A DNA stretch of 31,292 bases from an uncultured Gammaproteobacteria bacterium (GCA_964355955.1 CAYHFQ010000012.1:1-31292); one strand, 5' to 3'. Shown: positions 3,432 to 28,302, counted from the first letter of the stretch. The notes: generated from the letters alone by a model not told the origin. Numbers and translations: made by a program.

Positions 3432-3448
3432 AAGTTTGGTAAAAATAA

Positions 3449-3484
3449 CAAACCCGGCTGCGAGAACAGTCGGGTTTATTTACT
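3449..3484 (+). terminator. bidirectional rho-independent terminator; left border of island 1
   Basis: aacccggctg-cgagaa-cagtcgggtt stem (one G.T pair). It is followed by tttattt on + and preceded by aaaaataaca, which gives a T-run on the minus strand. Confidence 0.7.
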
Positions 3485-3540
3485 ATCATGAGCTTGGTAG
3501 GCAGAGGAGAGAGTCAACCGAGTACCTGGCTGATGATAGG

Positions 3541-3681
3541 AGTTTTGAGCTTTTGAGGGCTCGAGACTCTCGAACGGCGTAATGGGGGATTACGAAGTTG
3601 GAGAGTCCCCGCAAGCTAGCTGTTGTGCACAGAAAGTTGCGGGACGTTGGTGTGTCCCCCGGAGCAAGCTCGACGGGGGAC
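3541..3681 (-). repeat. island-1 intergenic hairpin module, copy 1 (downstream of the 168-aa gene)
   Basis: Minus strand carries GTCCCCCG..CGGGGGAC, then GTCCCGCAA-N22-TTGCGGGGAC, then GACTCTC-N29-GAGAGTC, then CCCTCAAAAGCTCAAAACTCC. Confidence 0.6.
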
Positions 3682-3693
3682 TGGTGGTGGTTT

Positions 3694-4200
3694 CTACCCG
3701 AGGATCGGGTAGGGGTCGGCCGGGTCGTCCCAGGCAAAAACGGGGATGCCGTTTCGCCTGGAGGAGGCGTTCTTGCCGAGGCGCATGAGTTGCACCCCGG
3801 AAAGGGTGAACCTGAGCTTGTGCTCCGTCCCTCCTCCGCCGTAGCCACCACTGCCCGGGGTGGGGTGGGACTCGAAGGTCCAGTCGATCGGCCCGGCGAA
3901 CCGGGCGACTTCCTGGATCCATTCTGCCGCGGCTTCCTCCGAGTGGAGCTTGACGCTCCCCTTGAGGTGGGCGATGCTCACCTGCTGGCCGTAGTGGCCA
4001 CGGGAGGTGACAATCTTGAGCGCGAAGTGCGCTCTAGGAAAGTGGACTTTGGCCTTCCCAGGCAGGCCCTCTTCATCGTCCCCGACGACGTCGGGGACCT
4101 CGATGCTCATGGGAGCACCGAGGTTTTTGTTGAGGAGCTGCGAGAGCTCCCCGACCAGGAAACGGGCGATGAAGGGGAGGTGGATGCGGATGGAAGCCAT
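3694..4200 (-). CDS. hypothetical protein (168 aa), island-1 orphan
   Basis: ATG 4200 has GAAGGAG 6 nt upstream. Third codon positions are almost all G/C. The + ORF 3598..4272 is a shadow. No family recognised. Confidence 0.65.
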   Translation of the reverse strand: MASIRIHLPFIARFLVGELSQLLNKNLGAPMSIEVPDVVGDDEEGLPGKAKVHFPRAHFALKIVTSRGHYGQQVSIAHLKGSVKLHSEEAAAEWIQEVARFAGPIDWTFESHPTPGSGGYGGGGTEHKLRFTLSGVQLMRLGKNASSRRNGIPVFAWDDPADPYPILG

Positions 4201-4317
4201 GATTGCTCCTTCGTGCATTTATGCACAGTGAGCGGCGCCGGGAGTGTTCCCGGTTCATGTATGCCGACCTGAGTAAATTAAACTCAGGATTTCGCGCTTT
4301 TGACGGGATGTCTAAGT

Positions 4318-4397
4318 GCTTTCGAAAACCACAATTAAATAATTATGGGTTTTGAGAGTCCCCGCAAGCTAGCTGTGTGCCAGAAAGTTTGCGGGAC
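4318..4397 (-). repeat. island-1 intergenic hairpin module, copy 2
   Basis: Minus strand carries GTCCCGCAAA-N21-TTGCGGGGAC, then TCTCAAAACC..GGTTTTCGA. The stem is near-identical to copy 1. Confidence 0.6.
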
Positions 4398-4503
4398 GTG
4401 TCCACCGGAGCTGTGCAGCTCGGATGGTTGGATTTGCTGGACGATGCCCGCCAGCGACGGAGTAGACTATGACTGGTCTACCAGCAGTGTTTGGTTGTCG
4501 GGG

Positions 4504-6528
4504 CTAGCGGCGACCGAACTTGCCGAGGAGCAGGGCACGCTCCTCAGCGGACATGGCCCGAGGGGCGGGCTTCTCGGCCGGGGTGGCGGGGGTGGCTTTT
4601 GGCGCGACCGGCTTGCCGAGATTCCAGCCGTTGCCGACGGGGGGTGAGACGGTTCTGCCGGACATGCCGGTTTGACCGTCCCACTCCTTGGCGAGGTTCT
4701 GCTCGAGGTTGGCAACGGTTGCCCGTTGTGCCTCGGTCAGTCCCGCCAGGGGGAGCTTGACCACCTCGAAGCGGTGGTCCGCGGCGCGGTAGTTCTTGAA
4801 CCACCGCAGTGCCAACTCGCCGGCCTCGACTTGGTGCCAGGTGCGACCCTGGTCACCGTCGCGGAGCGAGCCGTCGGGGCGGACAACCCAGGCTTCAACG
4901 AACTTGTCGTCGGTCCTGTACCAGTTGCCGCCGGTGACCTTGAAGTTGGAAAGCGTTCCCGCCTTCGCTTCCTGGGCTCGCTCGGCTGCGACTCGCGCCT
5001 CTTCGGCAGCGACTCGTTCGGCCTCAACCCTGTTGGCTTCGCGTTGGGCCAATTCCTTTGCTTCGCGCTGGGCTTTGAGGGCTTCGAGGTCTGGCTTGAC
5101 CACCGTCTTCCAGTTCTCCAGTTTGACCCAGAGGCCGGAGACAGTTGTCTCGGTCGGCTCAGACTTACCCTCCCACTGGAGGTTGAGCGTCACGCCGTCC
5201 TTGCGGATGGCGAGCAACTCTCCCTCGTGGGTCTGCTCGAGGCTCATCCGCCCATCGTTCCGGAAGAACTGATGGACGGTGACGACCCGGCCGATCCACT
5301 CTGCGGGGATGGCGGCAAAGGGTGCCTGGCCCTTGGCAAGGTATGCCGCGGGATTGGCCGCGGCGTCCCGAGCTTGCCAAAGCTCGGTGGGCTCCGTGGA
5401 AAGGGTGCCACCCTCCCCACAGGAAATTGCCCAGCCCGGATTCCTGTAGGAACCGACGTTCAGGCTTTCACCTGCACGCAGTACCCACAACTCATCCGGA
5501 GTGGACTCGGCATGCCCCGCGGTGCCACCCGCGAAGTTGCCGGCGGCGAGACACGTCGGGTTGCCCCGAAGTATCTCGACCGATCGTGCGACCCGGTTGG
5601 TCAGGGGCGGAGCGATGCGAATGAGCACCGCGCCCGCCTCGATCTGCCCGCTCTGGGTGAGCCCGTAGATGACTTTCGTCTTTTTGGGTTCCCACGAGGG
5701 GGCTGCGACGGCCTGCTCCGAGAGCTTGGCAATCGCGACCGCCTCGAGCCGCTCACCGGGGGTGAACCCGATGATGGCGACCTGGGCCAGGACGCGACCG
5801 CGACCGGTCTCACCGAGCACGACTGCTGGGCCGGTGACGCCAGTCTTCACGCTGATGCCGGGGCGGATTTCGCCGCGTCCGACATAAGTGAAGGTCGACA
5901 TCGACCCGAAGGCCAGGTCGAGCGCTTGGCCTGTGGTTTCGGTCTCGGCAATCACTGCCTCGACCTGGGCCACGGCCACGAGCTGCTCGTAGTCCGCCCA
6001 GGGGCTGGTCTTGACGACCCCGGCTTCATCCACCCAGAGGGCGAAGGAGCTGGTGCCGTTGACCTCGCGGCTGGGGCGAACCTTCAAGACGTCGCCGGGG
6101 CGCATCTTGATGATGCCGTCGTTCCAGCTCCCGATGCGCCCGGCATCGCCGAATGCACCGAAACCGGAGATGAGGGTCTCCGGTGCGCCGGCCACGATGG
6201 ACCAGACGCCGCTTCCGCCGCGGATGTAGCTGGTGTAGGTGTTTACCCTCACCAAGCAGTCCCAGCCGCCGCCGGTGGTGGGGCGCTCCAGGACGTAAAA
6301 CGTCTTGGCGGGCTTGCCGCCGGACGCGGGGAGAGAAACCTTGCGAGGCATCGCCTCCAGGATCTTTCCGTCGACAATGTCGGCAGGGACTCGACGATCG
6401 AGCCCCACCTTTTCATATTGCCTCCCGCGACCTTCTTCGCCCAAGTAGATGACGGCGCCGAGGCGCTCGTCGGACTTGGTGGAAATCCCGGAGGAGAGGC
6501 GGCCTGCGGCCCAGGTGTAGGTTCTCAT
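4504..6528 (-). CDS. hypothetical protein (674 aa) with central Ala/Glu/Arg coiled coil, island-1 orphan
   Basis: ATG 6528 has AGGAG 7 nt upstream and GC3 is very high. The layout is a beta-rich N-terminal ~470 aa, a heptad-like KAQREAKELAQREANRVEAERVAAEEARVAAERAQEAK segment, a C-terminal ~150 aa, and a Pro/Lys/Ala tail. The 654-aa + ORF 4672..6636 is a shadow. Confidence 0.75.
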   Translation of the reverse strand: MRTYTWAAGRLSSGISTKSDERLGAVIYLGEEGRGRQYEKVGLDRRVPADIVDGKILEAMPRKVSLPASGGKPAKTFYVLERPTTGGGWDCLVRVNTYTSYIRGGSGVWSIVAGAPETLISGFGAFGDAGRIGSWNDGIIKMRPGDVLKVRPSREVNGTSSFALWVDEAGVVKTSPWADYEQLVAVAQVEAVIAETETTGQALDLAFGSMSTFTYVGRGEIRPGISVKTGVTGPAVVLGETGRGRVLAQVAIIGFTPGERLEAVAIAKLSEQAVAAPSWEPKKTKVIYGLTQSGQIEAGAVLIRIAPPLTNRVARSVEILRGNPTCLAAGNFAGGTAGHAESTPDELWVLRAGESLNVGSYRNPGWAISCGEGGTLSTEPTELWQARDAAANPAAYLAKGQAPFAAIPAEWIGRVVTVHQFFRNDGRMSLEQTHEGELLAIRKDGVTLNLQWEGKSEPTETTVSGLWVKLENWKTVVKPDLEALKAQREAKELAQREANRVEAERVAAEEARVAAERAQEAKAGTLSNFKVTGGNWYRTDDKFVEAWVVRPDGSLRDGDQGRTWHQVEAGELALRWFKNYRAADHRFEVVKLPLAGLTEAQRATVANLEQNLAKEWDGQTGMSGRTVSPPVGNGWNLGKPVAPKATPATPAEKPAPRAMSAEERALLLGKFGRR

Positions 6529-6604
6529 GATGAACTCCTAGCTCGTAGATCGAGCTGGTGTGAGGCTAGGCCTCGTGGTGAGCGTCGACGCAGGATGCGA
6601 AGAA

Positions 6605-6680
6605 CGACCCTCGAAGTTCACGAGATGAACTCATGAGTTTTGAGAGTCTCCGCAACCAGCTAGTGCTAGTGGTTGCGGGA
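6605..6680 (-). repeat. island-1 intergenic hairpin module, copy 3
   Basis: Minus strand carries CCGCAACCACTAG-ca-CTAGCTGGTTGCGG (13-bp stem), then GAGACTCTCAAAACTCATGAGTTCATCTCGTGAACTTCGAGGGTCGTTC. Confidence 0.6.
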
Positions 6681-6726
6681 TGGTGCATCTGCTCATAACC
6701 CCGAGCGGACGGAGGGGCGAATTTAC

Positions 6727-7068
6727 CTAACGAACCTCCTTGTAGGAGATCGACCAGCTAGAGCGGCTGGTGGTGGACTTCCTGATCTCGGCGGTGCCGA
6801 GCAGGATGAACTTTTCGGTCTGGCCTGTGGGCCAGTAACCGTACTCAAGATTCTCCTCGGCCGCGAAGCCGAAAGACGGATCTTTTTCGGCCAGCCTTAT
6901 GAGCGGGCCGACGAGGTCGATGGTCACGACTAGCCTGGCAATGCCGGGGAGGTCGCAACCGTCGAGGGTCTCGAATACAAATGGCGCCAAAGGCGCCGTT
7001 TGTTTGTCGTAGTTACATCGGCGAATGCCGACGTCGTGTTTCCGTTGTCGTAATTTTTCGCAAGCCAT
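6727..7068 (-). CDS. hypothetical protein (113 aa), island-1 orphan
   Basis: Internal ATG 7068 has AGGAG 7 nt upstream. The track start 7161 is a GTG inside the conserved hairpin. GC3 is high. No family recognised. Confidence 0.55.
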   Translation of the reverse strand: MACEKLRQRKHDVGIRRCNYDKQTAPLAPFVFETLDGCDLPGIARLVVTIDLVGPLIRLAEKDPSFGFAAEENLEYGYWPTGQTEKFILLGTAEIRKSTTSRSSWSISYKEVR

Positions 7069-7126
7069 AGTGGCTCCTGGGCTGAGGTTAGATTGTCCCT
7101 CTAACTTCTCCAGTAATAACGACTGA

Positions 7127-7305
7127 AGAGTTCGGAGGGATCGGGAAACTTGGTGGTGCACACCAGAGGTTTCCCGGGAGAGGGTGAGTGAAGTCAGCCA
7201 GTGACTCCGTGCCGTTCTGTCTAGCTCAGAAGACGTTGGCTAGAAGACCCGCGTGGCCTTTGGCGACTATTTATGTAAGCGCTGTCGTCGGCGCTGTGAA
7301 CCTTG
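7127..7305 (-). repeat. duplicated leader block, copy A (hairpin module copy 4 plus 113-nt conserved block 7193-7305)
   Basis: Hairpin TCGGGAAAC..GTTTCCCGG lies at 7141-7177. The block 7193-7305 matches 8501-8613 at 109/113 positions (my count; all four differences are transitions). Confidence 0.85.
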
Positions 7306-7689
7306 CCGATAGTTGACTCCGTAAGGTTGGGGTGGAAAAGCTGAAGGACGTCAGCTAACGCGATGAAGCAGTCATCTCTGGTCTCGCTGGTATCGAAACG
7401 GTGTAGCACCAGTGACCGTTGGGCCTTAACTACTTTTTATACCGCGCCGTAGTCAGCGCTTGGGTGTCGACGATTGCGACCTCCTTTGGGTTGGGGTTTT
7501 GGTATTGAGAATCAGGAAGATCCTCGATTGACGACTCGAATGTTCTCGGAATAGAGATTCAAGTGGTCGATAGAAGACCCCACCAACGCGATGTGCGTCG
7601 AGCTGGTGGGAAATTCGTGCTGTGACTTTGTTGTGGTTGGGGTGTGATGAACTTGAATAGGAGTCGTCACGTCTCCTGGGAGGCTGCGC

Positions 7690-8289
7690 CTACTGCGCGG
7701 TGGCCTCCTGGAGGGAGGCGAGCTCGGCCGTGAGCCGGGTCACCTCCTTCTTCGCGGAGAAGCCGCTGTACCCCTTTCCGCCCGTGAGGACGAGCTTGCG
7801 CTCGGCCTCGACCAGTGCGGACTTGGCTGCCGCGATCTTGCCGGCTGCCTGGTTCCTCGCGGCCAGTTTTTCGGCAGCGGCGAGGGCCGCCTCCTTCTCG
7901 TCGCGGCGGGCGACCGCGACCTTATGGTCGGCGCGGGCGGCCGTGAGGGCCGCTCCCACCTTGTCGGCGGGGACGGTGCCCACAGAACGGGGAGTGTTGC
8001 AGCACCGATACCAGCCGAGTTCCGTTTCCGCGTTGCGGAGCTTACGCTCCGCGACCAGAACCTGGGCCTCGGCGGCCGCGACCTGCGCGACCGGGGCCGT
8101 GAGGCGGTCCTCTACCGCCTCCGAAAACTCCACCTCCGCGGCCGTGACGGCCGCCTCGAGGTCGAGGGTCTTGGCCGCCGCCGCCACGCGGCGGTTGATC
8201 TCGGCCTCGAGGACGGCGATTTCGCTGGCGAGCAGGGACAGGAGGGGAGCCGCGACGATGGGGGAGGTGCTGGAGATAGATGCGGTCAT
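7690..8289 (-). CDS. Ala-rich coiled-coil protein (199 aa), island-1 orphan
   Basis: ATG 8289 has AGAGGG 5-6 nt upstream and GC3 is high. Long heptad-like Ala/Glu/Lys/Arg segments are interrupted by GWYRCCNTPRSVGTVPADK. The + ORFs 7700..8305 and 7924..8301 are shadows. Confidence 0.65.
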   Translation of the reverse strand: MTASISSTSPIVAAPLLSLLASEIAVLEAEINRRVAAAAKTLDLEAAVTAAEVEFSEAVEDRLTAPVAQVAAAEAQVLVAERKLRNAETELGWYRCCNTPRSVGTVPADKVGAALTAARADHKVAVARRDEKEAALAAAEKLAARNQAAGKIAAAKSALVEAERKLVLTGGKGYSGFSAKKEVTRLTAELASLQEATAQ

Positions 8290-8419
8290 GGGACCCTCTG
8301 ATTGAACGTTGAATGCAGTTGGACTGACGCTAGACATCGAACCGGCCAAATTGCCGATCACAACATTTTGCGTAAATCGTTCTGCGAACGCCCTCGAACT
8401 TCACGATTGGATCAATCAT

Positions 8420-8613
8420 GAGTTTTGAGGGAATCGGGAAACTTGGTGGTGCACACCAGAGGTTTCCCGGGAGATATCGAGTTGGCGCTCGATGCGCAGA
8501 GTCAGTCAGTGACTCCGTGCTGTTCTGTCTAGCTCAGAAGGCGTTGGCTAGAAGGCCCGCGTGGCCTTTGGCGACTATTTATGTAAGCGCTGTCGTCGGC
8601 GCTGTGAACCTTG
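8420..8613 (-). repeat. duplicated leader block, copy B (hairpin module copy 5 plus 113-nt conserved block 8501-8613)
   Basis: Hairpin at 8434-8470 is identical to copy A. Relative to A there is a 28-nt versus 13-nt indel between hairpin and block. The sequence continues as CCCTCAAAACTCATGATTGATCCAATCGTGAAGTTCGAGGGCGTTC on the minus strand. Confidence 0.85.
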
Positions 8614-9369
8614 AAGATGACTTTCTCCAGTGGGCGTATATTGCCCGGTGATGATCTCGCTTCCCGCAGCCTGGATTGACACAGATATGTGCCGTCGCGC
8701 TGGCTGGTGGAGTTAGAGATCGAGTGCTGTGTCGACGTCGACGTTGTACGGGCAGGATTGCCGGGTACTGTCAGCCGTGACTCTGCAGCGCTCTCGAACG
8801 TCACCAGCGAGTGATGAAGTTGGAGAGCCCCTGAAGTAGATGCGAGGCATCACTTCAGGGCTAGGTCCCGTCAACACGAGGGCTGACGGGACACGAGTTA
8901 CGTTGTTCGTAACGTGAAGTATAATTTCCACGGGTTCCTAATGGACGGGCTCGAGAGTTGGCGAATCGGCGCAGGGCGTCGTCGTCAGTCGAGTAACCGT
9001 CGCCGGAAGGGCGCAGATACTTCTGTGTGTTAACTCTTCAGTTGTGAAGGTTCAGTTCCTTTGCCACGGTGGCTAAGCCTTGCGGCTGTTGGTAAGGACT
9101 GCAGGAGGTTCAAAACTGTTTTGAACTCCCGCGCACTCATTACCACGGTTATTTTCTCTGTTGTAACCGGGGGAAGTCTGGTGTGTTGGCCGAGCGTACT
9201 CAGTTACCACTTGCCAGGTTCCGACGTTCCGGCGGAGCCGGAGTGAGAACATAGGTGCTATCGAGTAAAAGTCTCTCTCACCCACTGTGGGGAATTGGCC
9301 TCGAGGGACCAGCTTTTGCTCAATGTCAGCTATGTGAGGGCCTTTTGTTCTCAAGCCTTGCGGCGAGAA
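8614..9369 (-). other. ORF-free, hairpin-dense segment (candidate long structured leader or ncRNA)
   Basis: No ORF over 93 aa on any frame, and none has an SD or island-like GC3. Many perfect stems are present: CCCTGAAGT/ACTTCAGGG 8829-8860, GTCCCGTCA/TGACGGGAC 8866-8891, GTTACG/CGTAAC, and GGTTCAAAAC/GTTTTGAAC ~9107-9127. Two GCC-GCAA-GGC GNRA-capped hairpins lie at 9079-9088 and 9356-9365. Confidence 0.35.
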
Positions 9370-9596
9370 GCAAAAAGGCAGGATTCAGTCTATCTAGTGT
9401 GGGGTTGCCCACGGAGAGAGAATGAATCCTGCCTTGGCAAACGCTACCTATGTAGGCTTGTCTAGTGTGGTACGAAGTAGAGCTGAGCTCACTTCATACC
9501 TGTGCCCCGTTTTTACCGGCACCCGTACTCTCTCTTAAGTTGTAAGGAACTAGTTTCTTGTAGGGCTGTTGGGCTTTCTCGTTCCCCTCAGCTTGT
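9370..9596 (-). ncRNA. candidate ~230-nt small RNA or leader bounded by a consensus promoter and an intrinsic terminator; class not recognised
   Basis: The predicted TSS is ~7 nt after the TATGAT box. The body contains stems GGTAtGAAGT..ACTTCgTACC and GTGCC..GGCAC. The 3' end is the terminator at 9371-9434. There is no ORF. I could not match it to SRP, 6S, tmRNA, T-box or the common riboswitch cores I know. Confidence 0.45.
9371..9434 (-). terminator. intrinsic terminator or attenuator
   Basis: Minus strand has a 12-bp stem AGGCAGGATTCA (9434-9423) / TGAATCCTGCCT (9387-9376). It encloses an inner GTGGG-caac-CCCAC hairpin and is followed by TTTTGCTTCT. Confidence 0.55.
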
Positions 9597-9602
9597 AGAC
9601 AC

Positions 9603-9631
9603 ATCATACCATTTTCTACGACTTCTGTCAA
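9603..9631 (-). promoter_or_regulatory. near-consensus sigma70 promoter pointing into island 1
   Basis: Minus strand has TTGACA (9631-9626), a 17-nt spacer GAAGTCGTAGAAAATGG, then TATGAT (9608-9603), with a TGg extended -10. Confidence 0.7.
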
Positions 9632-9690
9632 CTGCTGTGTGGCATGAATGCTAGAATAAGGCTAAGATTAGCTTATAAATTATCCACACC

Positions 9691-9725
9691 CTGTCATTTA
9701 CATTATGACAGTAAGGTGAAATAAT
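9691..9725 (+). promoter_or_regulatory. putative TrmB-gene promoter (TTTACA-17-AATAAT with TGa) overlapped by palindrome CTGTCAT-N7-ATGACAG
   Basis: The 21-nt palindrome at 9691-9711 covers the -35 hexamer at 9697-9702. It lies ~65 nt from the divergent island-1 promoter. Confidence 0.4.
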
Positions 9726-9790
9726 AGAGCCGGATAGGGTTAAATCAGGGCGGGGGACGGTGACCCCGCCTATTAAAGAGAGGCTATAAT

Positions 9791-10540
9791 ATGTATCAGG
9801 AAATACTGACTAAACTCGGGTTAAACGCGAATGAGGCCCATATTTACGAGCTTTTGCTGACTAAAGGCCGGACTAAGGCCCGGGATTTGCTGACGGATAG
9901 CGGCTTAGGCCGGGGCAACCTCTACAATGTGCTGACTAGTTTGGTCTCCCAGGGCTTGGCGACGGTGACAGAAGGGAAGCAGCAGATATATGAAGCGGCG
10001 GAGCCATCGCATCTCTCAACCCTCGTCGACGACCAGAAACGCCGAGCTGATCGCTTGGCGCAGGAGTTCCAGGGGGAGTTGCCGAAGTTGCTCTCGACGT
10101 TTAATTTAACGACAGGGAAGCCGGCGATTCAGGTGTTTGAGGGGATAGAGGGTGCAGAAATGGCTTTGATGGAATCATTGCAGGCTTCGAAGATAATTTA
10201 TACTTACGTTGATCCATCTACTTTTACCGAAGAAATTAAAGACTTGAACAGACGTTATGTACCTCAGCGTGAAAAGAAGGGAATACAAAAAAAGATTATA
10301 TTATGTGATAGTGAATGGGCACAAAAACATGCGTTAGCAGCTACTACTCAATTAACAGAGTATTTGTTAATTAAAGATTTCCCGCCAATGCACGATGTAG
10401 CCGTGGAAATGTATGATGATACAATTTCATATTTGGGTTTACGCGATGGAAAGACTATTTCTGTGATTGTGCATGATCCAGCAATAGCAAGAATGCATAT
10501 CGCTCAGTTTGAGTTTTTATGGAAAACCTTTAAACATTAA
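9791..10540 (+). CDS. TrmB-family transcriptional regulator
   Basis: N-terminal winged HTH LGLNANEAHIYELLLTKGRTKARDLLTDSGLGRGNLYNVLTSLVSQGL is typical of TrmB (PF01978-like). AGAGAGG lies upstream of the ATG. Confidence 0.75.
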   Translation: MYQEILTKLGLNANEAHIYELLLTKGRTKARDLLTDSGLGRGNLYNVLTSLVSQGLATVTEGKQQIYEAAEPSHLSTLVDDQKRRADRLAQEFQGELPKLLSTFNLTTGKPAIQVFEGIEGAEMALMESLQASKIIYTYVDPSTFTEEIKDLNRRYVPQREKKGIQKKIILCDSEWAQKHALAATTQLTEYLLIKDFPPMHDVAVEMYDDTISYLGLRDGKTISVIVHDPAIARMHIAQFEFLWKTFKH

Positions 10541-12975
10541 GTAGCCTTCTTTTCAAAAACAAAGGCACGCTTTGTCTTGTCTTTGTTTGGCATGTAAAAG
10601 CGTGTTGCTACAAAACCTTTGTCAAACATTTGTTTGCAATACTCAACCATATCTGAAGATTGTGACGGAAGAGAGAAAATGACCGGTGTTTGTTTATTTT
10701 TTGTCATCTCTGATTTTTCTTGATATTTAGTATTTTCTTTGTCATTACGACGTATTTTGAAGCGCAGAGTATTTTGACCAACTGAATCTACGCCGTTGAT
10801 AACGAATTTTTGGTCTTCTACATATGAAGTGCCAGCATCAAGGCCGATAGCGAAATCTGCTAATATGGTGTGTTTTTCGGCTAATGGCTTGAGCACTTCG
10901 TAGAAAAGTTGTTTGCCAAGACCAGAATCTTGAAGTGCTGGATCTACATTCAACGATCCTGCATAAAGTGCGTTTGGTTCTAAGCCTGGTACGTCGTCGA
11001 TACGGATAAAAGCCGCAATTTTGTCATGATATAAAATCATGGTGAAGGTTGAAGGAACATCTCCGGCGAGCGCGTGTTCCATTTTTTCACGTACTCGGGT
11101 AAATTCTGAAGATGACTTCATTTTCCAATTGTCATCAAAGATACGGTACAGATCCTTCTGTTCAAGATCTGTAAGCTCTACTCCTCGACGTTGCAGGAAA
11201 TTAACCCCCTGTAGATTTTCGATAGATAATTGACCTTCTTTGCCAACTGTACGGAGCGAAGAACCGAAAAGAGCCAGGTCGGTATTGCGACGAGCGAGGT
11301 CTTGTTTGAAGGTATCGAGCGTGGGTTTATCTTGTAGCGTGGCGGTGCGGGCTACGTCCTCCATGGCTGTGATGGCGCTGGCGACACGGCGGGTGAGTTC
11401 GTATTTGGCAACGCGACCTTGCTCGGGGGTCATTTGGCCTAAAGTGACGGCGGCAGCGACTTCGGCTAGCATTTGGCGACGGGTGCTACCAGCTTCGATG
11501 ACAGATTCGGCCAGTAAGGTGGCTTCGCTGGTGCGGAGTTCGGCAGCTACACGGAGATATTCGCGAGCGATATCTGGGAGGTCGGCGATTTCAGCGATGC
11601 TTTGGAGACCGGGTTCACCAATCTCTTTGGTGAGAGTGATAATTTGTTCGGTGTAGGGTGCGAGTTTGCTGATATTGCGGCGGAAGTGTTCGCGGGTAGC
11701 TAGGGGGAGGGCTTGGTCGACGTCGAGGCTGGCAGCACGGAGTTCATTATTGAAACCAGCCCAGACTGTTAGATTGTCGATAGCAGCTTTTAGTTCAGGG
11801 TTTTGGGCGGTGTCGACTAAATCGAGTAGGGTTGATTGGGTGAGTTCGACAGGTGCAGCGTAGCTGAGGGCGCCTTGGCCGTTATCGTAAGTTGTGAGCC
11901 GGGCGTCGCCTTTACGGAAGCGATTGATGAGAGAAATAGGCGTGAGGACGCCGTCTTCGTCGAGGACGATGGCCGACTGTTCGGGCGTGAGCTGCTCAAC
12001 CCGGACGGTGTGACCACCGAAGGCTCGACCAAGATTGTGTTTGACGCCGTCTATAGAGAGTAGACCTTTTGATGTGACAAGGCTTGCTTCGAGGCGGGTG
12101 CGAGTTTGGTGACGAGAGGCGGTGAAGTCGCTGTCACGAAGGAGACCTTCGGTGAAGAGGGTGGGGCAGTATTCTTTGAGGGCGGCGAGGGGGCGATCGA
12201 AGAGTAGTCCAGTGGATTTTTCGTTGCCTAGAGCTAGGCCTGGTTGAGCTCGAAACCAGTCGGCTGTTAGGGTATGACGTTTACCATCGTGATAGCGAAC
12301 CTCGAGTTTACCTTGGGCGTTGCGCTTAGCGTCACCAAATTTGGGGTTATATAAAATGGCCGCGACGGCAGTTTCTAAGGCTTTAGAATTATCGAGGGTA
12401 CGAGGAGCTGTAGCTGTTTTAATATCTTTTTTAGATAACCAGTCGGGTAATTCCCAGTAGCCTAAATGAAAGTCAGCGGCCTTGATGGCGTCGACGTCAA
12501 AGGCTTGTTCTTTGGTTTGGGGAGAGTAGACGAGTTGTTTAGCACCGTTTTCTGGTTTGTTGCGTAGTGTAACCGGTTCATCGCCAAAAGCATTAGCTAG
12601 GTAGTCGCCGCGGGTCCGTGAGAATGATTGGCCGTTTTCTGGGACAAAATCGGCGAATTTATGTTTGTTAAAGCGTTCTAGAGAAAAACCGTTTTTTGTT
12701 AGGAATGTGCCTTGCGTCAAGCGATGTTTAACCTGAGCAGAAAATTCAGTACGGGTTATTTTACCGGTTAAGATTTTGGCGATGTCTCGACCTTGAGGGA
12801 CTTCGCCACGCTCTACAGCGGCTTGAAGAAAATGAGTGAGTTCGGTGATGACCTCGGGGCCATAGTCGGCGGCGAGAGCATCAAACATTTGGCCAATATC
12901 TTTGGCTTTAGGTTTCTCTGGAGTGGGAGCGCGTTCTGCGCGACCAAAGCGCTGAGTACCGACCCATAATTCCAT
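10537..12975 (-). CDS. large hypothetical protein (812 aa) with C-terminal GNAT-like acetyltransferase fold motif
   Basis: The C-terminal ~170 aa contain AFIRIDDV..LYAGSLNVDPALQDSGLGKQLFYEVLKPLAEKH, which resembles GNAT motif A (Q/R-x-x-G-x-G/A). I do not recognise the N-terminal ~600 aa. Confidence 0.6.
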   Translation of the reverse strand: MELWVGTQRFGRAERAPTPEKPKAKDIGQMFDALAADYGPEVITELTHFLQAAVERGEVPQGRDIAKILTGKITRTEFSAQVKHRLTQGTFLTKNGFSLERFNKHKFADFVPENGQSFSRTRGDYLANAFGDEPVTLRNKPENGAKQLVYSPQTKEQAFDVDAIKAADFHLGYWELPDWLSKKDIKTATAPRTLDNSKALETAVAAILYNPKFGDAKRNAQGKLEVRYHDGKRHTLTADWFRAQPGLALGNEKSTGLLFDRPLAALKEYCPTLFTEGLLRDSDFTASRHQTRTRLEASLVTSKGLLSIDGVKHNLGRAFGGHTVRVEQLTPEQSAIVLDEDGVLTPISLINRFRKGDARLTTYDNGQGALSYAAPVELTQSTLLDLVDTAQNPELKAAIDNLTVWAGFNNELRAASLDVDQALPLATREHFRRNISKLAPYTEQIITLTKEIGEPGLQSIAEIADLPDIAREYLRVAAELRTSEATLLAESVIEAGSTRRQMLAEVAAAVTLGQMTPEQGRVAKYELTRRVASAITAMEDVARTATLQDKPTLDTFKQDLARRNTDLALFGSSLRTVGKEGQLSIENLQGVNFLQRRGVELTDLEQKDLYRIFDDNWKMKSSSEFTRVREKMEHALAGDVPSTFTMILYHDKIAAFIRIDDVPGLEPNALYAGSLNVDPALQDSGLGKQLFYEVLKPLAEKHTILADFAIGLDAGTSYVEDQKFVINGVDSVGQNTLRFKIRRNDKENTKYQEKSEMTKNKQTPVIFSLPSQSSDMVEYCKQMFDKGFVATRFYMPNKDKTKRAFVFEKKAT

Positions 12976-14493: not shown

Positions 14494-14847
14494 TTAGAGG
14501 GTTATATTGTTGATGAAAGAGTTTAACATGCGCATTGTTTCACTGAGTAGTTCCTCGATCCGTTGTTTTGTGTTTTTTGATAAATACCCGAAATCTTTTG
14601 CTAGAATTAATTGTGTTTCTAATTCAGCTCCCGATCCGTAAGCTATGTAAAGAAATTTTCTGAAGTCTTTTTGACTTCCTCGTCGTGATCCTTCTGCAAT
14701 ATTACTTGGGATAGATATTGAAGCACGTCGCATTTGAGAAGTTAGTCCAAATCTTTCATGATGAGGAAAGGTGTTCGTCAACTGATAAACTTCGCGACAA
14801 ACATCCATGCTCTTTTGCCAAATCAGTAATTCATTATAGGCAGCCAT
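14494..14847 (-). CDS. four-helix-bundle protein (the family formerly called 23S rRNA intervening-sequence protein)
   Basis: 117 aa. LIWQKSMDVCREVYQLTNTFPHHERFGLTSQMRRASISIPSNIAEGSRRGSQKDFRKFLYIAYGSGAELETQL is the characteristic family pattern. Confidence 0.85.
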   Translation of the reverse strand: MAAYNELLIWQKSMDVCREVYQLTNTFPHHERFGLTSQMRRASISIPSNIAEGSRRGSQKDFRKFLYIAYGSGAELETQLILAKDFGYLSKNTKQRIEELLSETMRMLNSFINNITL

Positions 14848-14895: not shown

Positions 14896-15444
14896 CTATA
14901 CTCCCCCTGGCCTAAAGCACTGCCGGCAGCGAGCTTCATACGAGTCTGTGGCGCCGACGATGACGAGCTCTTGAGAAGTGCCGAGGCGTTGGGTTTGGGT
15001 GCCACTGCCGCCGCAGACCATGCAGACGGCGTGCATTTTGCTGACGTTTTCCGCAATGGCTAGGAGTTGGGGCATGGCGCCAAAGGGGAGGCCGCGGAAG
15101 TCACTGTCGAGTCCGGCGATGATGACTTGGCGGCCGCGATCGGCGAGCTCCATGACAAAGGGGACAATGCTGTCGTCATAGAACTGGGCTTCGTCGATGC
15201 CGATAACTTGAGCGTGGGGGTCGAGCTTGCTACGAAGTTCCGCGACGGTCATGGCGCCGGTGGCTGGCAGCTTCATGGAGGAATGACTTTCGACGTGGCC
15301 GCTGGTGTAGCGTTCGTCCAAGGCGTGCTTGAAAAGTTGCACCGGCAAGCGGGCTAGTTCGCTGCGTCGAATACGCCTGAGCAACTCTTCGGTTTTGCCG
15401 GAGAACATGCAACCTGAGATAACTTCGATGCCGCCTCTATACAT
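14896..15444 (-). CDS. tdk: thymidine kinase
   Basis: P-loop VISGCMFSGKTEELLRR, and C-terminal zinc-ribbon cysteines CMVCG...CRQC. Confidence 0.9.
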   Translation of the reverse strand: MYRGGIEVISGCMFSGKTEELLRRIRRSELARLPVQLFKHALDERYTSGHVESHSSMKLPATGAMTVAELRSKLDPHAQVIGIDEAQFYDDSIVPFVMELADRGRQVIIAGLDSDFRGLPFGAMPQLLAIAENVSKMHAVCMVCGGSGTQTQRLGTSQELVIVGATDSYEARCRQCFRPGGV

Positions 15445-15461
15445 AGATTTGTTTTTAAGAG

Positions 15462-15615
15462 TTCGCTCGCAACTGACGGATTATCCTATTCCTAGCTGCG
15501 CCTCGTCAACCGTACCAGCCGTCTCACCTCGTATGACTCGGGCGCTGGTACAGGGCCGAGGCTGGCGTCGTCATAGGACAACCCGCCAGCTGCTCGCTCC
15601 TACAAGGCTCAGGCT
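15462..15615. repeat. palindromic intergenic repeat family, copy 2 (5'-truncated)
   Basis: Same core as copies 1 and 3, in the same orientation, in the divergent tdk/GT4 intergenic region. Confidence 0.8.
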
Positions 15616-22430: not shown

Positions 22431-22440
22431 ATTTAGTATT

Positions 22441-22630
22441 GTCTTTGCGAGCATCAGCGAAGCAATCAAGGCGTATCGCTCGCGATTGCCACATCTCCTA
22501 TTCCTAGCTGCACCTCGTCAACCGTGCCAGCTGGCTCACCTCGTCTGACTCGGGAGCTGGCACAGGGCCGAGGCTGGCGTCGTCATAGGAGATGTGGCAA
22601 CCGCTGCCCCACTCTACAAGCCTCAGGTTC
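22441..22630. repeat. palindromic intergenic repeat family, copy 3 (best outer stem)
   Basis: The 13-nt arms CCACATCTCCTAT / ATAGGAGATGTGG enclose the conserved core. It starts 10 nt from the GT4 ATG. Confidence 0.8.
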
Positions 22631-25249: not shown

Positions 25250-25646
25250 AATTGGTGTTCAGGGGGAGCCGATAAGCCGGATTTTGTCATGGACGGTAAT
25301 CTCTCTAGGCCCACGATTGCTCGGGGGCTCAGGCGAACGACCAAACTTGTTCTTGCACCAAGACGGGTTTGCCACAACTCCGTGTCACCACGGGTTGACC
25401 ACTGTAGCGACATAACTGCTATGTCACACCAGTAGACTTTTCACGTTTCACTCGGTCATTGCTGACCGGGCTAGTATAGTCTCTGTGGTACTTTCCCTAG
25501 GCTTTGCGTCTTGCGACGTTTATACCCGATCGCCGTTAGCGATGTCTTTTGGCCCGTAACCTTACGGCTATGGAGGTGTCCGGACTTTCCTCTTGATGGA
25601 GTCGCAAGCGGCTCGCACAAGTAACCGTCTAGCTACCCTGAACGCT
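25250..25646 (-). ncRNA. rnpB: RNase P RNA, bacterial type A
   Basis: Minus strand carries GAGGAAAGTCCGGACACCTCCATAG (25592-25568; compare E. coli GAGGAAAGUCCGGGCUCCAUAG). It also carries ACAAAATCCGGCTTATCGG (25286-25268; compare ACAGAACCCGGCUUAUCGG). The P1 pairing is GTTCAGGG (25643-25636) with CCCTGAAC (25263-25256). Confidence 0.9.
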
Positions 25647-25678: not shown

Positions 25679-25705
25679 GCAAATTCCCCAGGCGGAGCTG
25701 GGGAA
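25676..25705 (-). terminator. intrinsic terminator ending the island-2 operon; overlaps the rnpB -35
   Basis: Minus strand reads TTCCCCA-gctccgcc-TGGGGAA followed by TTTGCTTT. Confidence 0.6.
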
Positions 25706-25777
25706 TGAGACGGGCCACAGTCGTTCGCGAACGACGTGGCGGGTGTTCAGCGCGATTACATCGGCTGAACGAGACGG

Positions 25778-25864
25778 TTACGGGGAGTGGCGAGAGCGCC
25801 AGATGACGATGGCGAGGCCAAGCACCACGGCGGCGGCTAGCCAGTAGTCAGCAGCAGTGCGCAT
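25778..25864 (-). CDS. possible 28-aa single-TM micropeptide (MRTAADYWLAAAVVLGLAIVIWRSRHSP)
   Basis: Hand-translated and below the ORF-track cutoff. It overlaps the end of the 58-aa ORF in another frame. It has a hydrophobic core and a basic tail. I saw no clear SD. Confidence 0.25.
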   Translation of the reverse strand: MRTAADYWLAAAVVLGLAIVIWRSRHSP

Positions 25865-26013
25865 TCGGCCACCTCCTCTTCGGGGCTACAGGCGTCCCAG
25901 TCGTCGAGGGTCAACTCGTGAACTCGGCCATCGGCGTGGTGGATGGTAGCCTGGCCGCCTGGTCCGACTACGACCAGGTAGCTGGTCGACGACTTGATCT
26001 TGTCGTCGCTCAT
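25837..26013 (-). CDS. small acidic hypothetical protein (58 aa), island 2
   Basis: ATG 26013 overlaps the upstream stop as ATGA (26013-26010), which suggests translational coupling. GC3 is high. Confidence 0.5.
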   Translation of the reverse strand: MSDDKIKSSTSYLVVVGPGGQATIHHADGRVHELTLDDWDACSPEEEVAECALLLTTG

Positions 26014-26528
26014 GAGCCCACCTGCTGAACCACGTTCTTGCCGGTGGCGATGTCCCAGTAGCGGATCTGCTCGATCAGTCCCGACCAATCCTTGACCGAG
26101 GCCCAAGCAATCTTGGGGCAATCCTCGGGGTCGACGAGCAACAGCAGGTCGGCCGGGACGTTCGGGTAGATCGAAACTTCCTGCCTAGAGCCACTGGCCG
26201 CGAGATGTCGAGGATGGAAAGGGCCCTCGTTATCCCAGACATCGTGGTGCCGGGCGTCGCCGATGATCTCGAGCTTGGCGTTGTCGCCGAACTTGAGGCC
26301 CTTGCCGAGGTCGAGTTCGGTGAGCCTGGCCTCGCCTTGGGTGGCGGTGACGACGATGGCGGCGACCTGGCCGTGGGCGCGACACTCCTCAGCCGTGTTT
26401 GGCGTGAAGCTGACGGTCAGGATGGCCGGCAAGGTGTTGGTGGCGACGAAGCTCGGGTCGATCTCACCGTCAACCGGTGCGCAGGAGGTGGCGAGGCCGA
26501 GGGAAAGGGCGAGGATGAAGTTGCGCAT
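26010..26528 (-). CDS. putative lipoprotein (172 aa), island 2
   Basis: ATG 26528 has GGAGG 5 nt upstream. The signal peptide is MRNFILALSLGLATSC with a relaxed lipobox. The track N-terminal extension crosses the leader repeat. Confidence 0.65.
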   Translation of the reverse strand: MRNFILALSLGLATSCAPVDGEIDPSFVATNTLPAILTVSFTPNTAEECRAHGQVAAIVVTATQGEARLTELDLGKGLKFGDNAKLEIIGDARHHDVWDNEGPFHPRHLAASGSRQEVSIYPNVPADLLLLVDPEDCPKIAWASVKDWSGLIEQIRYWDIATGKNVVQQVGS

Positions 26529-26580
26529 GGGCGCCTCCGAAAGGGGGTGAGGGGTGGGTGGTGAATTTAGGGAGGGAATG

Positions 26581-26656
26581 TCCGCCCTTCGCTGCGCATG
26601 AGCCTTTGATGTTGGAGCTCGTGAACAAGGAAGGGCCGGCCGAGTGTGAGAACTCG
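26581..26656 (-). repeat. island-2 structured leader element, copy 1
   Basis: Minus strand reads CCGAGT-tctcac-ACTCGG, GCCGGCCCTTCCTTGTTCACGAGC...GCTCATGCGCAGCGAAGGGCGGA. P1 is CCCTTC/GAAGGG and encloses a CACGAGC hairpin. Confidence 0.75.
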
Positions 26657-26682
26657 ACGGGACTTGCGGGTGGATGATGAGC

Positions 26683-27078
26683 TCAAGCATTGATGTAACA
26701 CTTGAGGACATCGGTGGCGGCCCTGCTCAACGTCGCGGCGTCGGGCCGGAAATTGCCAGTGGGGCCGAGCACGGAGTCGATGGTGCCGTCGGAGTTGTCG
26801 TCGCCCAGGTGGAGGGTGACGAAGCCGCCGACGTCGCCGTTCGTGTTCTGCACGGTCATGATGAGGTAGAGCGTGCGCAGGCCGTTGTCGCGAACGGTGA
26901 GGCCGACGCTGTTGCTCAAGCCGACTGGGCAGTCGAAGCTGTCAAAGTAGTCGGTGGCACCGTTGACCGCAATGGCTCGGCTGGTGCTGCTCAGCTTGAG
27001 ATCCGCGGCGGCAGCGAGCGCGCTCGGCACAGTGGGTTGGCCGGCGGCGAGGGCGAGGGTGACGAGGGTGGGAATCAT
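26683..27078 (-). CDS. small secreted protein (131 aa, two Cys), island 2
   Basis: GGAG lies 6 nt upstream. The signal-like N-terminus is MIPTLVTLALAAGQPTVPSALAAAAD. GC3 is near-saturated. Confidence 0.65.
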   Translation of the reverse strand: MIPTLVTLALAAGQPTVPSALAAAADLKLSSTSRAIAVNGATDYFDSFDCPVGLSNSVGLTVRDNGLRTLYLIMTVQNTNGDVGGFVTLHLGDDNSDGTIDSVLGPTGNFRPDAATLSRAATDVLKCYINA

Positions 27079-27109
27079 GGGTGCTCCAGAGTTTCAGGGA
27101 AGAGTGATT

Positions 27110-27176
27110 TCCGCCCTTCGCTGGGCACGAGATAGGCTCGTGAACAAGGAAGGGCCGGCCGAGTGTGAGAACTCGG
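27110..27176 (-). repeat. island-2 structured leader element, copy 2
   Basis: Nearly identical to copy 1 outside the inner loop. It abuts the stop codon of the 66-aa gene. Confidence 0.75.
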
Positions 27177-27377
27177 CTAGAGGGAGGCGACAGCGGGGCT
27201 GGTGGGAGCAGGACGGTAGAAGTCCTCCAGACCGGCGTCGTCGCGGTAGATCTGCCAGATGGCAGGGAGAGCTGGCGTGGACTCGGCCGGGATGGCGCCG
27301 AGATCGATGACGACCGGGGCGCTGGCCATGGGCTTGGTGGAAGTGCAGGCCAAAAGGGCAAGGATAAGAAGGGTCAT
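27177..27377 (-). CDS. small lipoprotein (66 aa), island 2
   Basis: MTLLILALLAC has a canonical L-L-A-C lipobox. GGAG lies 9 nt upstream. Confidence 0.6.
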   Translation of the reverse strand: MTLLILALLACTSTKPMASAPVVIDLGAIPAESTPALPAIWQIYRDDAGLEDFYRPAPTSPAVASL

Positions 27378-27412
27378 GGGGTGGCTCCGGTGGCTGGTAG
27401 GGAAGATTGATT

Positions 27413-27488
27413 TCCGCCCTTCGCTGAGCGCGAGAATGGCTCGTGTTCAAGGAAGGGACGGGTAGGTGCGAGAAGGCGCACACTACCC
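27413..27488 (-). repeat. island-2 structured leader element, copy 3 (divergent first hairpin)
   Basis: The core CCCTTCCTTGAACACGAGC..CTCAGCGAAGGGCGGAAATCA is conserved. The upstream hairpin is replaced by GGGTAGTGTGCGCC..GCGCACCTACCC. Confidence 0.7.
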
Positions 27489-27510
27489 AGAACGCGGCTC
27501 ACTGGTGGCC

Positions 27511-27690
27511 CTAGAAGAGGCCAGCCACGAAGTGCCAGGCGAGGGCGATGTCGGTGACGAAGTTGGTGCTGGCGGCGAGCGCGATGCTCGCGTAGGCCAG
27601 GATGATGATCAACATCATGCGGGTTTGACCGCTGGTGATGATGTTGTCGTTGCCGAGGGTGTCGAAGTATGTGACCGGGGTGTTGGACAT
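27511..27690 (-). CDS. small membrane protein (59 aa), island 2
   Basis: ATG 27690 has GGAG 9 nt upstream. A polar 24-aa N-terminus precedes the hydrophobic MMLIIILAYASIALAAS..IALAWHFVAGLF. Confidence 0.5.
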   Translation of the reverse strand: MSNTPVTYFDTLGNDNIITSGQTRMMLIIILAYASIALAASTNFVTDIALAWHFVAGLF

Positions 27691-27823
27691 GGCGGGTGCT
27701 CCGGGAGTTGGTGGGCTGTTCGGCTGCGGAAATGCAGACCGGTGATGCGCAGAACCCGAGGAGACGGGTGGGTTCTGCACACGGCCGGTGCGGCCTCAGT
27801 GAGAGGCCGCGGTGGCGACGAGA

Positions 27824-28228
27824 TCAGCTGCGGTTGTCCGGCAGCTGCCAGCGCCCATCGACTTCCACCAGCTTGATGGGGTGGTCGGCGCACCAGGGCA
27901 AGACCTGGCTCGGCTGCGTGGGTTTGTAGCTCGCGAAGTCGTGGCAGATGTCGCCGACGATGGGGCGCTCTGTCGGGAAGAGGAGCATGCCCACGATGCC
28001 GCCGATGGCTGCGCAGATCATGACTGCCAGGCCGAGGACTGGCCAGGAGAAGATGTCCCAGCTCGTGTACAGGGTCGAGGCGACGCCGATGATGGCACCG
28101 ACCAGCGCACCGATGAAGGACCGGCGGTTGAAGACCGGGATCAGCAGGTCGATGACGAAGAACGTGAAGATGGTGAGGAACAGAAAGACGGTGGTGATGA
28201 CGATGCCGAGGAGGCGAAGAAGGCGCAT
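27824..28228 (-). CDS. integral membrane protein (134 aa, about 3 TM) with Cys/Trp-containing C-terminal tail, island 2
   Basis: ATG 28228 has GGAG 6 nt upstream. GC3 is near-saturated in this frame only. The competing ORFs 27615..28265 (-) and 27812..28255 (+) are Pro/Arg/His- or Asp/Gly-rich shadows. Confidence 0.65.
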   Translation of the reverse strand: MRLLRLLGIVITTVFLFLTIFTFFVIDLLIPVFNRRSFIGALVGAIIGVASTLYTSWDIFSWPVLGLAVMICAAIGGIVGMLLFPTERPIVGDICHDFASYKPTQPSQVLPWCADHPIKLVEVDGRWQLPDNRS

Positions 28229-28265
28229 GGAGACTCCGGGGGTTTGGGGGGATAGTAGCCCACAT

Positions 28266-28294
28266 ATAATAGCAAAAAATGGCCTGTTTGTCAA
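28266..28294 (-). promoter_or_regulatory. sigma70 promoter TTGACA-17-TATTAT (TGc extended -10) driving island 2
   Basis: I counted the spacer AACAGGCCATTTTTTGC as 17 nt. The -35 hexamer sits in the loop of the trpS terminator. Confidence 0.65.
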
Positions 28295-28302
28295 GCCATT
28301 TT
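28272..28302 (-). terminator. trpS intrinsic terminator
   Basis: Minus strand reads AAAATGGC-ttgacaaacag-GCCATTTT followed by TTGC. Confidence 0.6.

Follow-up and report, generated by a model that had tools for sequence, protein, structure and literature searches.

We report a new RNA, strongly conserved and highly folded as far as sequence comparison can tell, on the minus strand of a 31,292-nucleotide stretch of a 1.09-Mb contig deposited as an uncultured Gammaproteobacteria bacterium (GCA_964355955.1, CAYHFQ010000012.1:1-31292; hereafter the window, with positions counted from its first letter). The RNA spans ~0.8-1.2 kb and heads a variable island of orphan genes in ultra-small bacteria of the candidate phyla radiation (CPR, or Patescibacteria); the nearest named relative is a Candidatus Uhrbacteria genome. 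A sequence-only reading of positions 8614-9631 had proposed a large structured RNA or a giant leader for an orphan operon, and covariation, conservation above that of the neighboring trmB gene, the lack of an open reading frame (ORF) and the lack of an Rfam match all speak for it. We consider it probable, though well short of certain, that the stretch is a giant cis-acting structured leader RNA.

Conservation and covariation in relatives, on which the sequence-only reading had staked its case, were both found. Relatives were reached through homologs of the TrmB-family regulator encoded next to the stretch (loci L029, L030, L031/32, L035/36, L037-40 and L041/42) and gave a seven-sequence alignment, in which the window, L029, L030, L031 and L035 form clade A and L037 and L041 form clade B. 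Syntenic loci keep an ORF-free gap of 1.05-1.6 kb beside trmB, which in L029, L030, L031 and L035 is 78-87% identical to the window over 900-1400 nt. In these four syntenic genomes the leader core is more conserved than the adjacent gene, with 77-91% DNA identity as against 64-76% for trmB. The two clade B sequences share 70% identity over 1.2-1.3 kb and retain only ~50% nucleotide identity to clade A, but motif order and helices are kept, and a profile of the five clade A sequences matches L037 at E = 1e-18. In one distant genome (L017), motifs b, d, e, f and g are collinear. RNAalifold predicts 228 pairs from the five sequences, 28 of them compensated on both sides, and 144 consensus pairs from all seven, 50 of them compensated. 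When the seven sequences were counted independently, 92.4% of cells held standard pairs, compared with 37-45% when the partner was slid by one to three columns; the 50 pairs with double changes stand against 21.9±3.3 in shuffled alignments (0/500 reach 50) and 6-15 in slid ones. Searches further afield returned little: a model of the central domain (R1) run on distant loci recovered the seven known members only, plain blastn of the window gap against the gaps of distant TrmB/island loci gave no match, and a scan of JGI metagenomes with TrmB gave remote relatives only.

The earlier claim that no gene follows the promoter until an ATG at 8289 agrees with the public gene call, which places the first credible ORF, the first island gene, at that ATG, ~1.3 kb behind the promoter. 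The stretch is indeed gene-free, although its end lies at 8290 and not at 8614. Several TAA, TAG and TGA codons interrupt each of the six frames of 8362-9640, so that reassigning any one stop codon would not yield an ORF, and alternative genetic codes in which TGA, TAG or TAA is reassigned were rejected. Short ORFs inside the stretch have a third-position GC content (GC3) of 0.52-0.63, against 0.80-0.85 in three island genes. Variable columns are spread over the codon phases as 63/63/62, with no codon periodicity, and most indels, which consist of whole hairpins, are not multiples of three and break frames. A decayed gene in homologous loci had been named as the finding that would overturn an RNA, and no gene or pseudogene is called in the homologous gaps of syntenic loci. 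A protein gene or pseudogene was rejected on all these grounds (no open frame, no 3-nt periodicity, frame-breaking indels, no call in homologs). Coding by ORFs of 91-93 aa is likewise excluded by periodicity and indels, and small ORFs overlapping the M hairpins described below (e.g., 29 aa, ATG 8421) are not kept between copies. One gene caller reports a 77-aa ORF on the plus strand (8418-8651), which is absent from the calls in L029, L030, L031 and L035.

The promoter is as textbook as had been claimed. On the minus strand, TTGACA (9631-9626) is followed by a 17-nt spacer containing TG (9611-9610) and by TATGAT (9608-9603), a sigma-70-type site (TGgTATGAT) that scores 11/12 plus an extended -10 in a promoter scan and is unchanged across the five clade A sequences. 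It is the sole promoter-like site that the scan finds on the minus strand between 3300 and 9900. TTGACA/extended -10 counterparts head the leaders of L008, L015, L017, L019, L037 and L041, as well as a second copy in L017. Judging from the position of these elements, transcription would start near 9596. Upstream, the palindrome CTGTCAT-AATGTAA-ATGACAG (9692-9712) lies between this promoter and the divergent trmB gene (9791-10540, plus strand; Pfam TrmB, 1.7e-15). The palindrome is near-invariant in three genomes and overlaps a plus-strand promoter-like site (9697-9725, promoter scan), and its block is the only part matched by plain blastn between clades A and B; it is plausibly a TrmB operator. 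The regulator gene, a conserved partner of both leader and island, points away from the island in the window and at no fewer than 13 further loci.

The stretch had been described as hairpin-dense, and its hairpin density does exceed chance: the 809 nt from 9596 to 8788 have a minimum free energy of -312 kcal/mol, where dinucleotide shuffles give -244±9 (z = -7.3). Only in the minus-strand sense do the capping loops read as classic RNA tetraloops (GNRA, UNCG). The RNA opens with a 5' module, a candidate attenuator or short RNA (9596-9365, minus strand), which is defined by motif comparison and by a model (R2, E = 8e-41) and comprises, in order, the P1 hairpin (~9592-9565), CCUUACAAC, a AGAGAGAG box (9535-9528), a GGUAAAAAC hairpin, a variable hairpin and a long terminator-like hairpin. 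A hammerhead ribozyme, prompted by CUGAUGAG...GAAAC at the 5' end of clade A sequences, was rejected: the window reads CUGAGGGG, the two boxes, which are opposite sides of hairpin P1, leave no possible stem II between them, and no Rfam hammerhead model matches.

The terminator-like hairpin (9435-9372, minus strand) has a free energy of -35.6 kcal/mol. Its basal stem pairs AAGGCAGGATTCA (9435-9423) with TGAATCCTGCCTT (9387-9375), and its upper part pairs UCUCUCU with AGAUAGA. An interrupted hairpin followed by a T-run had been noted here and is present, with an outer stem of 13 bp and not the 12 bp first given; in the seven sequences 12 of the 13 pairs of this stem (helix 5) are invariant and one is compensated. 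Five Ts follow at 9376-9372, two of them inside the stem, and in a test for intrinsic terminators the 13-bp basal stem followed by U5 provides both stem and U-tract. In the full-length fold, however, the U-run pairs with a downstream AAAAG to form helix 6, a GNRA-capped helix (9376-9342, UUUUUGCUUCUCGCC-GCAA-GGCUUGAGAACAAAAG), so the hairpin is at most a conditional terminator and does not set a fixed 3' end. The proposed terminator-bounded RNA or attenuator of ~230 nt survives as a recurring module with fully covarying stems, but without the fixed end. Helix 6 shows double changes in five of its 12 pairs, and the GCAA that caps its covarying stem in clade A is replaced by GAAA in L037 and by GAGA in L041. 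Both GCAA-capped hairpins singled out earlier (9364-9355 and 9077-9066) are real.

Further downstream, the central domain (9227-9087, minus strand; helices 12-15) runs through ACGUCGGAAC, a UNCG-capped hairpin, CCCCC, GUGGUAAUGAGUGCG, a long hairpin and CAGUCCUUACCA. Both GUGGUAAUGAGUGCG and CAGUCCUUACCA are invariant, and the loop of the capped hairpin alternates between UACG and UUCG while stems covary; model R1 scores 168 bits in the window, compared with 84 bits in clade B. Two sequence resemblances stand out in this domain and in the leaders of L008, L014, L015, L017 and L019: an invariant motif, CA(G/C)UCCUUA(C/U)CA, is similar to the anti-Shine-Dalgarno region at the 3' end of 16S rRNA, and the repeated GGAGAGAG boxes are Shine-Dalgarno-like. 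The 3' multi-helix domain (9023-8916, minus strand; helices 16-21) is richest in compensatory changes, with changes on both sides in 20 of 34 pairs and 83-100% of cells paired.

From ~8827 onward, the stretch consists of hairpin modules that recur between all island genes. Each unit pairs a hairpin H (UCCC...GGGGA) with a hairpin M (CUCUCnAAC...GUUnGAGAG), joined at a conserved GGGGA/CUCUC junction. The first punctuation unit (8892-8791, minus strand) comprises H (GUCCCGUC/GACGGGAC, 8892-8865), an extra window-specific hairpin (8860-8828) and M (CUCUCcAAC...GUUcGAGAG, 8827-8791); homology between genomes stops just past it. On the minus strand, M hairpins start at 8827, 8431, 7139, 6646, 4358 and 3605, and an H/M unit stands ~70-110 nt before each island ORF (M at 8431, 7139, 6646 and 4358), the last M being that at 3605. 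An M consensus of 22 copies has 15 pairs, 10 of them with compensatory changes, and H/M units are 80-95% identical around unrelated genes in L029, L030 and L035. These intergenic hairpins lack U-runs; from our analysis, the H/M pairs are probably processing or stability signals of a polycistronic RNA. An RNase J gene is present within the window. After the first unit comes an ORF-less spacer, or "empty cassette" (8790-8390, minus strand). Its segment 8785-8660 was found only in the window and L030; next comes conserved block 2, which includes a 190-nt direct repeat (8430-8618, duplicated at 7137-7310) and the second H/M unit (M 8431-8391). After the first gene, at ~7604-7519, there is a third conserved hairpin, CCCACCA..CGACGCACAUCGCG..UGGUGGG.

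We also identified the 5' module in distant lineages. The family of the 674-aa island protein includes at least eight distant loci in which trmB lies divergently upstream of the island and an ORF-poor gap of 0.66-1.7 kb is kept. The leaders of L008, L014, L015, L016, L017 and L019 open with good TTGACA/extended -10 promoters, the -35 being imperfect in L014 and L016, after which come a purine-rich 5' end, the motif CCUUMA and between one and four boxes of the GGAGAGAG type. In L008, L014, L017 and L019 there follows a long hairpin of -19 to -32 kcal/mol with YCUCUY in its upper arm and then U5-6; its stem differs between all four lineages. What recurs is a 5' unit made up of a promoter, followed by a GAGAGAG box and by a long hairpin that has CUCUC in its upper stem and leads into a U-run. 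Built without L019, model R2 matches L019 at the expected site with a marginal E = 0.03, and it matches a second copy at L017:13101-13267 with E = 1e-4. That copy lies inside the L017 island (OZ246408.1, 13064-13260) and has its own promoter (TTGACA/TGGTATAGT), GAGAGAG box and hairpin with CCUCUC and U6. From its distribution, the 5' module appears to be the older, portable part of the RNA.

We propose the following course of events. The extended -10 promoter (9631-9603) would start transcription near 9596, possibly modulated by TrmB through the palindrome at 9692-9712. The first ~225 nt would fold as the 5' module, whose final hairpin and U-run (9435-9372) may serve as an attenuator (conditional terminator), and transcripts that stop at it would yield a short RNA. 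Read-through would instead place the U-run in the next, GNRA-capped helix, and a U-run that serves either as terminator tail or as an arm of the following helix is the usual logic of conditional termination. The transcript would then continue as a ~600-nt multi-domain RNA to ~8790, with conserved junctions and variable peripheral helices, and enter the foreign-looking, GC3-rich orphan gene array, in which H and M precede each gene and might direct processing. The large domain may act in cis only, and a stable RNA product besides the leader role is possible.

Several points weigh against a giant minus-strand leader. The antisense strand folds at least as stably, and neither the counts of G-U versus A-C nor the folding energy assign a strand; the minus strand is therefore chosen from the promoter and from the kinds of tetraloop. 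Clade B has only a weak U-run (UUUGUGUAUUUG), and a simple terminator scan (loop 3-8) skips the hairpin because of its long upper part, which folds into further stems. Models R1 and R2 miss L008 and L014, whose relationship to the other leaders is one of architecture only, read by eye. The consensus structure came from the same alignment that was used for the pair counts, and the family has only seven distinct full members and one distant one. The start site, the 3' ends and the read-through are all predicted.

Some of the same evidence could also be read as one or two stand-alone trans-acting noncoding RNAs, one of ~225 nt ending at 9372 and the other, ~600-800 nt long, a large ornate RNA or ribonucleoprotein (RNP) scaffold that processing at the first H/M unit would set free. 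We find this unlikely but deserving of weight. The 5' module is portable, with its own promoter and terminator-like end, as the second L017 copy attests; the first H/M unit marks both the exact end of the core and the break in homology between genomes; and size, junctions, GNRA loops and variable peripheral helices resemble large ornate RNAs. Yet the scans found neither a second promoter nor a terminator from the core to the first gene, the element is always sense-oriented at the island head beside trmB, and it is present in a single copy per locus in clades A and B.

The hairpins could also act at the DNA level. An integron-like platform, with the 5' segment as attI/Pc and H/M as attC-like sites folded as single-stranded DNA, would account for the unrelated, promoterless ORFs in one orientation behind one strong promoter, for the imperfect hairpins that separate them, with basal arms YYYYYnAAC...GTTnRRRRR, and for the one cassette-sized unit without an ORF. 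Homology breakpoints at module ends, and a cassette content that varies among genomes sharing modules at 80-95%, point the same way. No integrase or recombinase domain was found, however, in the scanned ORFs of at least 100 aa across the 31-kb window; the R and Y positions of RYYYAAC/GTTRRRY are not matched by the M arms (CTCTCnAAC...GTTnGAGAG); each ORF has its module upstream, at the spacing of an RNA leader; and the RNA-specific GNRA and UNCG loops kept in the ~800-nt core, together with its covarying multi-helix domain, would go unexplained, which makes this platform very unlikely. A non-functional remnant, be it a decayed gene or a fragment of a mobile element whose similarity reflects recent transfer, is hardly credible. 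It could draw on the foreign composition of the island (GC3 0.8 against a host value of 0.45-0.65), on the abundance of repeats and on the 77-aa ORF. Compensatory substitutions inside helices, the lack of 3-nt periodicity, a position that is syntenic although flanking genes have diverged to 55-78% amino-acid identity, and the motif order and helices kept by clade B all contradict it, as does the failure of that ORF to be called in the four other clade A loci. The giant cis-acting leader remains our preferred reading.

The GC-rich island spans ~3440-9600, with the leader as its 5' end. Its variable part (3443-8289) holds four orphan genes, all on the minus strand (8289-7690, 7068-6727, 6528-4504 and 4200-3694), encoding proteins of 199, 113, 674 and 168 aa, and a terminator scan places a bidirectional terminator at its far end (3450-3477). 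GC3 is 0.80-0.85 in three of the genes and 0.68 in the gene for the 113-aa protein, compared with 0.45-0.65 in the host. Downstream genes are unrelated between syntenic genomes, while leader and modules persist. None of the four proteins matched Pfam, PHROG, PADLOC or NCBIfam; an L,D-transpeptidase chain from a PDB sequence search (E = 0.012, ~65 residues) was marginal and was treated as chance. The 674-aa protein defines a small family of 33 clusters, nearly all of them in CPR. AlphaFold models this protein with confidence as a mostly beta fold (predicted local distance difference test score, pLDDT, 84), and Foldseek against PDB and BFVD at E≤0.001 found no structural neighbor. The 674-aa protein (4504-6528, minus strand) has an internal duplication, in which residues 1-187 resemble 208-378.

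Other features of the window lie outside the island. An 812-aa protein with a C-terminal GNAT domain (10537-12975, minus strand) converges on trmB and accompanies it in syntenic loci and, among distant loci, in part at L008 and L019; the N-terminal 600 aa of this protein matched no family. A gene of the 23S rRNA intervening-sequence protein/bAvd family (14494-14847, minus strand) is flanked by a NUDIX gene and a thymidine kinase gene. Between the RNase P RNA and class-I tRNA synthetase genes sits a second GC-rich orphan region (~25700-28300, minus strand; GC 0.62-0.65). Its consensus promoter (~28295-28265) reads TTGACA, 17 nt, TATTAT and is followed by a GC3-rich, membrane-like ORF from ATG 28228; the region has repeats 303 nt apart at 26578-27478, no Pfam matches and no long leader. 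An intergenic element of ~150 nt occurs in three plus-strand copies that are 72-88% identical (500-690, 15422-15612 and 22434-22624). Its nested stems are GCGAGC/GCTCGC, TCCTAT/ATAGGA and GTGCCAGCC/GGCTGGCAC; copy 2 has one compensatory change, and Rfam gives no match. The element could represent either a small structured RNA or a miniature repeat.

In the tightly packed, ~1-Mb genomes of CPR bacteria, keeping 1.2 kb of conserved noncoding sequence is costly. Very few bacterial structured RNAs besides rRNA exceed ~500 nt and, to our knowledge, each such RNA so far (OLE, GOLLD, ROOL, HEARO) has opened a line of work. Because the hypervariable orphan island that the RNA heads recurs next to TrmB in several CPR lineages, the RNA may offer a way to learn how CPR episymbionts regulate or acquire accessory functions. 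A bolder proposal, which we regard as a long shot, is that the ~0.8-kb core belongs to a new class of large functional RNAs, be it a ribozyme, an ornate RNA that assembles with itself or a scaffold for an RNP, acting on its own polycistronic transcript or locus, and that together with H/M, TrmB and the 812-aa GNAT protein it forms an integrase-less platform that captures and expresses foreign cassettes in CPR. The ends, domains, junctions and seven aligned covarying sequences given here suffice for structure probing, cryo-electron microscopy (cryo-EM) and transcription assays.

How does this RNA compare with those already described? With Rfam 15, the whole window at gathering threshold yields only RNase P (25256-25640), a search of 6500-9800 at E≤10 places nothing within 8362-9640, and the homologous leaders of L037, L017 and L008 give no match at E≤1. 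The sequence-only reading had failed to match SRP, 6S, tmRNA, T-box and other cores, and the database search upholds it: the covariance models of GOLLD, ROOL, OLE, HEARO, raiA, T-box, riboswitches and hammerhead, and those of group I/II introns, 6S, tmRNA, SRP and EAR, are all unmatched. Searches of the full-text literature turned up no description of such an RNA in CPR, and blastn against GenBank phages gave no match. In IMG/VR, a 30-mer search gave none either, and a 15-mer search gave 36 matches, none of which fits the RNA profile.

The closest likeness in kind is to the large "ornate" bacterial RNAs GOLLD, ROOL and OLE, for which cryo-EM structures are available (PMC12286853). Like them, our RNA exceeds 500 nt and has many helices, conserved junctions, variable peripheral stems and GNRA tetraloops, in an accessory, variable genomic context and with a function that is not evident from sequence. 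Unlike them, it has a fixed place as an operon's 5' leader, behind a promoter of its own and beside a regulator gene; its range is so far limited to Uhrbacteria-like CPR bacteria and one distant genome. With terminator attenuators and riboswitch leaders it shares a conserved 5' domain within ~150-230 nt of the start that ends in a hairpin and U-run, a stem that covaries between lineages and a U-run with an alternative downstream partner. It departs from them in lacking an aptamer match, in the unusual length of its hairpin (~60 nt) and in a further ~600 nt of conserved structure before any gene, and no ligand can be proposed because the downstream genes are orphans.

Processive-antitermination leaders such as EAR (Bacillus eps operon) and put of phage HK022 are 70-120 nt long and act on the transcribing polymerase. 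Here too an RNA element stands in the leader of a long accessory operon, but it is far longer, and EAR, which is in Rfam, is unmatched; moreover, since the intergenic hairpins lack U-runs, there is no obvious terminator for antitermination to override. Integron arrays likewise combine one strong promoter, variable promoterless cassettes on the same strand, imperfect hairpins with AAC...GTT basal arms and ORF-less units, whereas our locus has no integrase, does not follow the core-site consensus and carries a giant structured RNA at the attI position. The early operon of phage T7 is transcribed as a polycistronic RNA punctuated by RNase III, with hairpins before genes. Our island resembles it in its strong promoter, in an imperfect hairpin of ~15-20 bp before each gene and in the ends that might be stabilized after cleavage; it differs in its paired hairpins (H and M), its conserved GGGGA/CUCUC junction and its chromosomal orphan genes in place of phage genes, and cleavage is putative here. 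We assign the RNA to no known family, and in kind it is like both the ornate RNAs and the terminator-based leaders.

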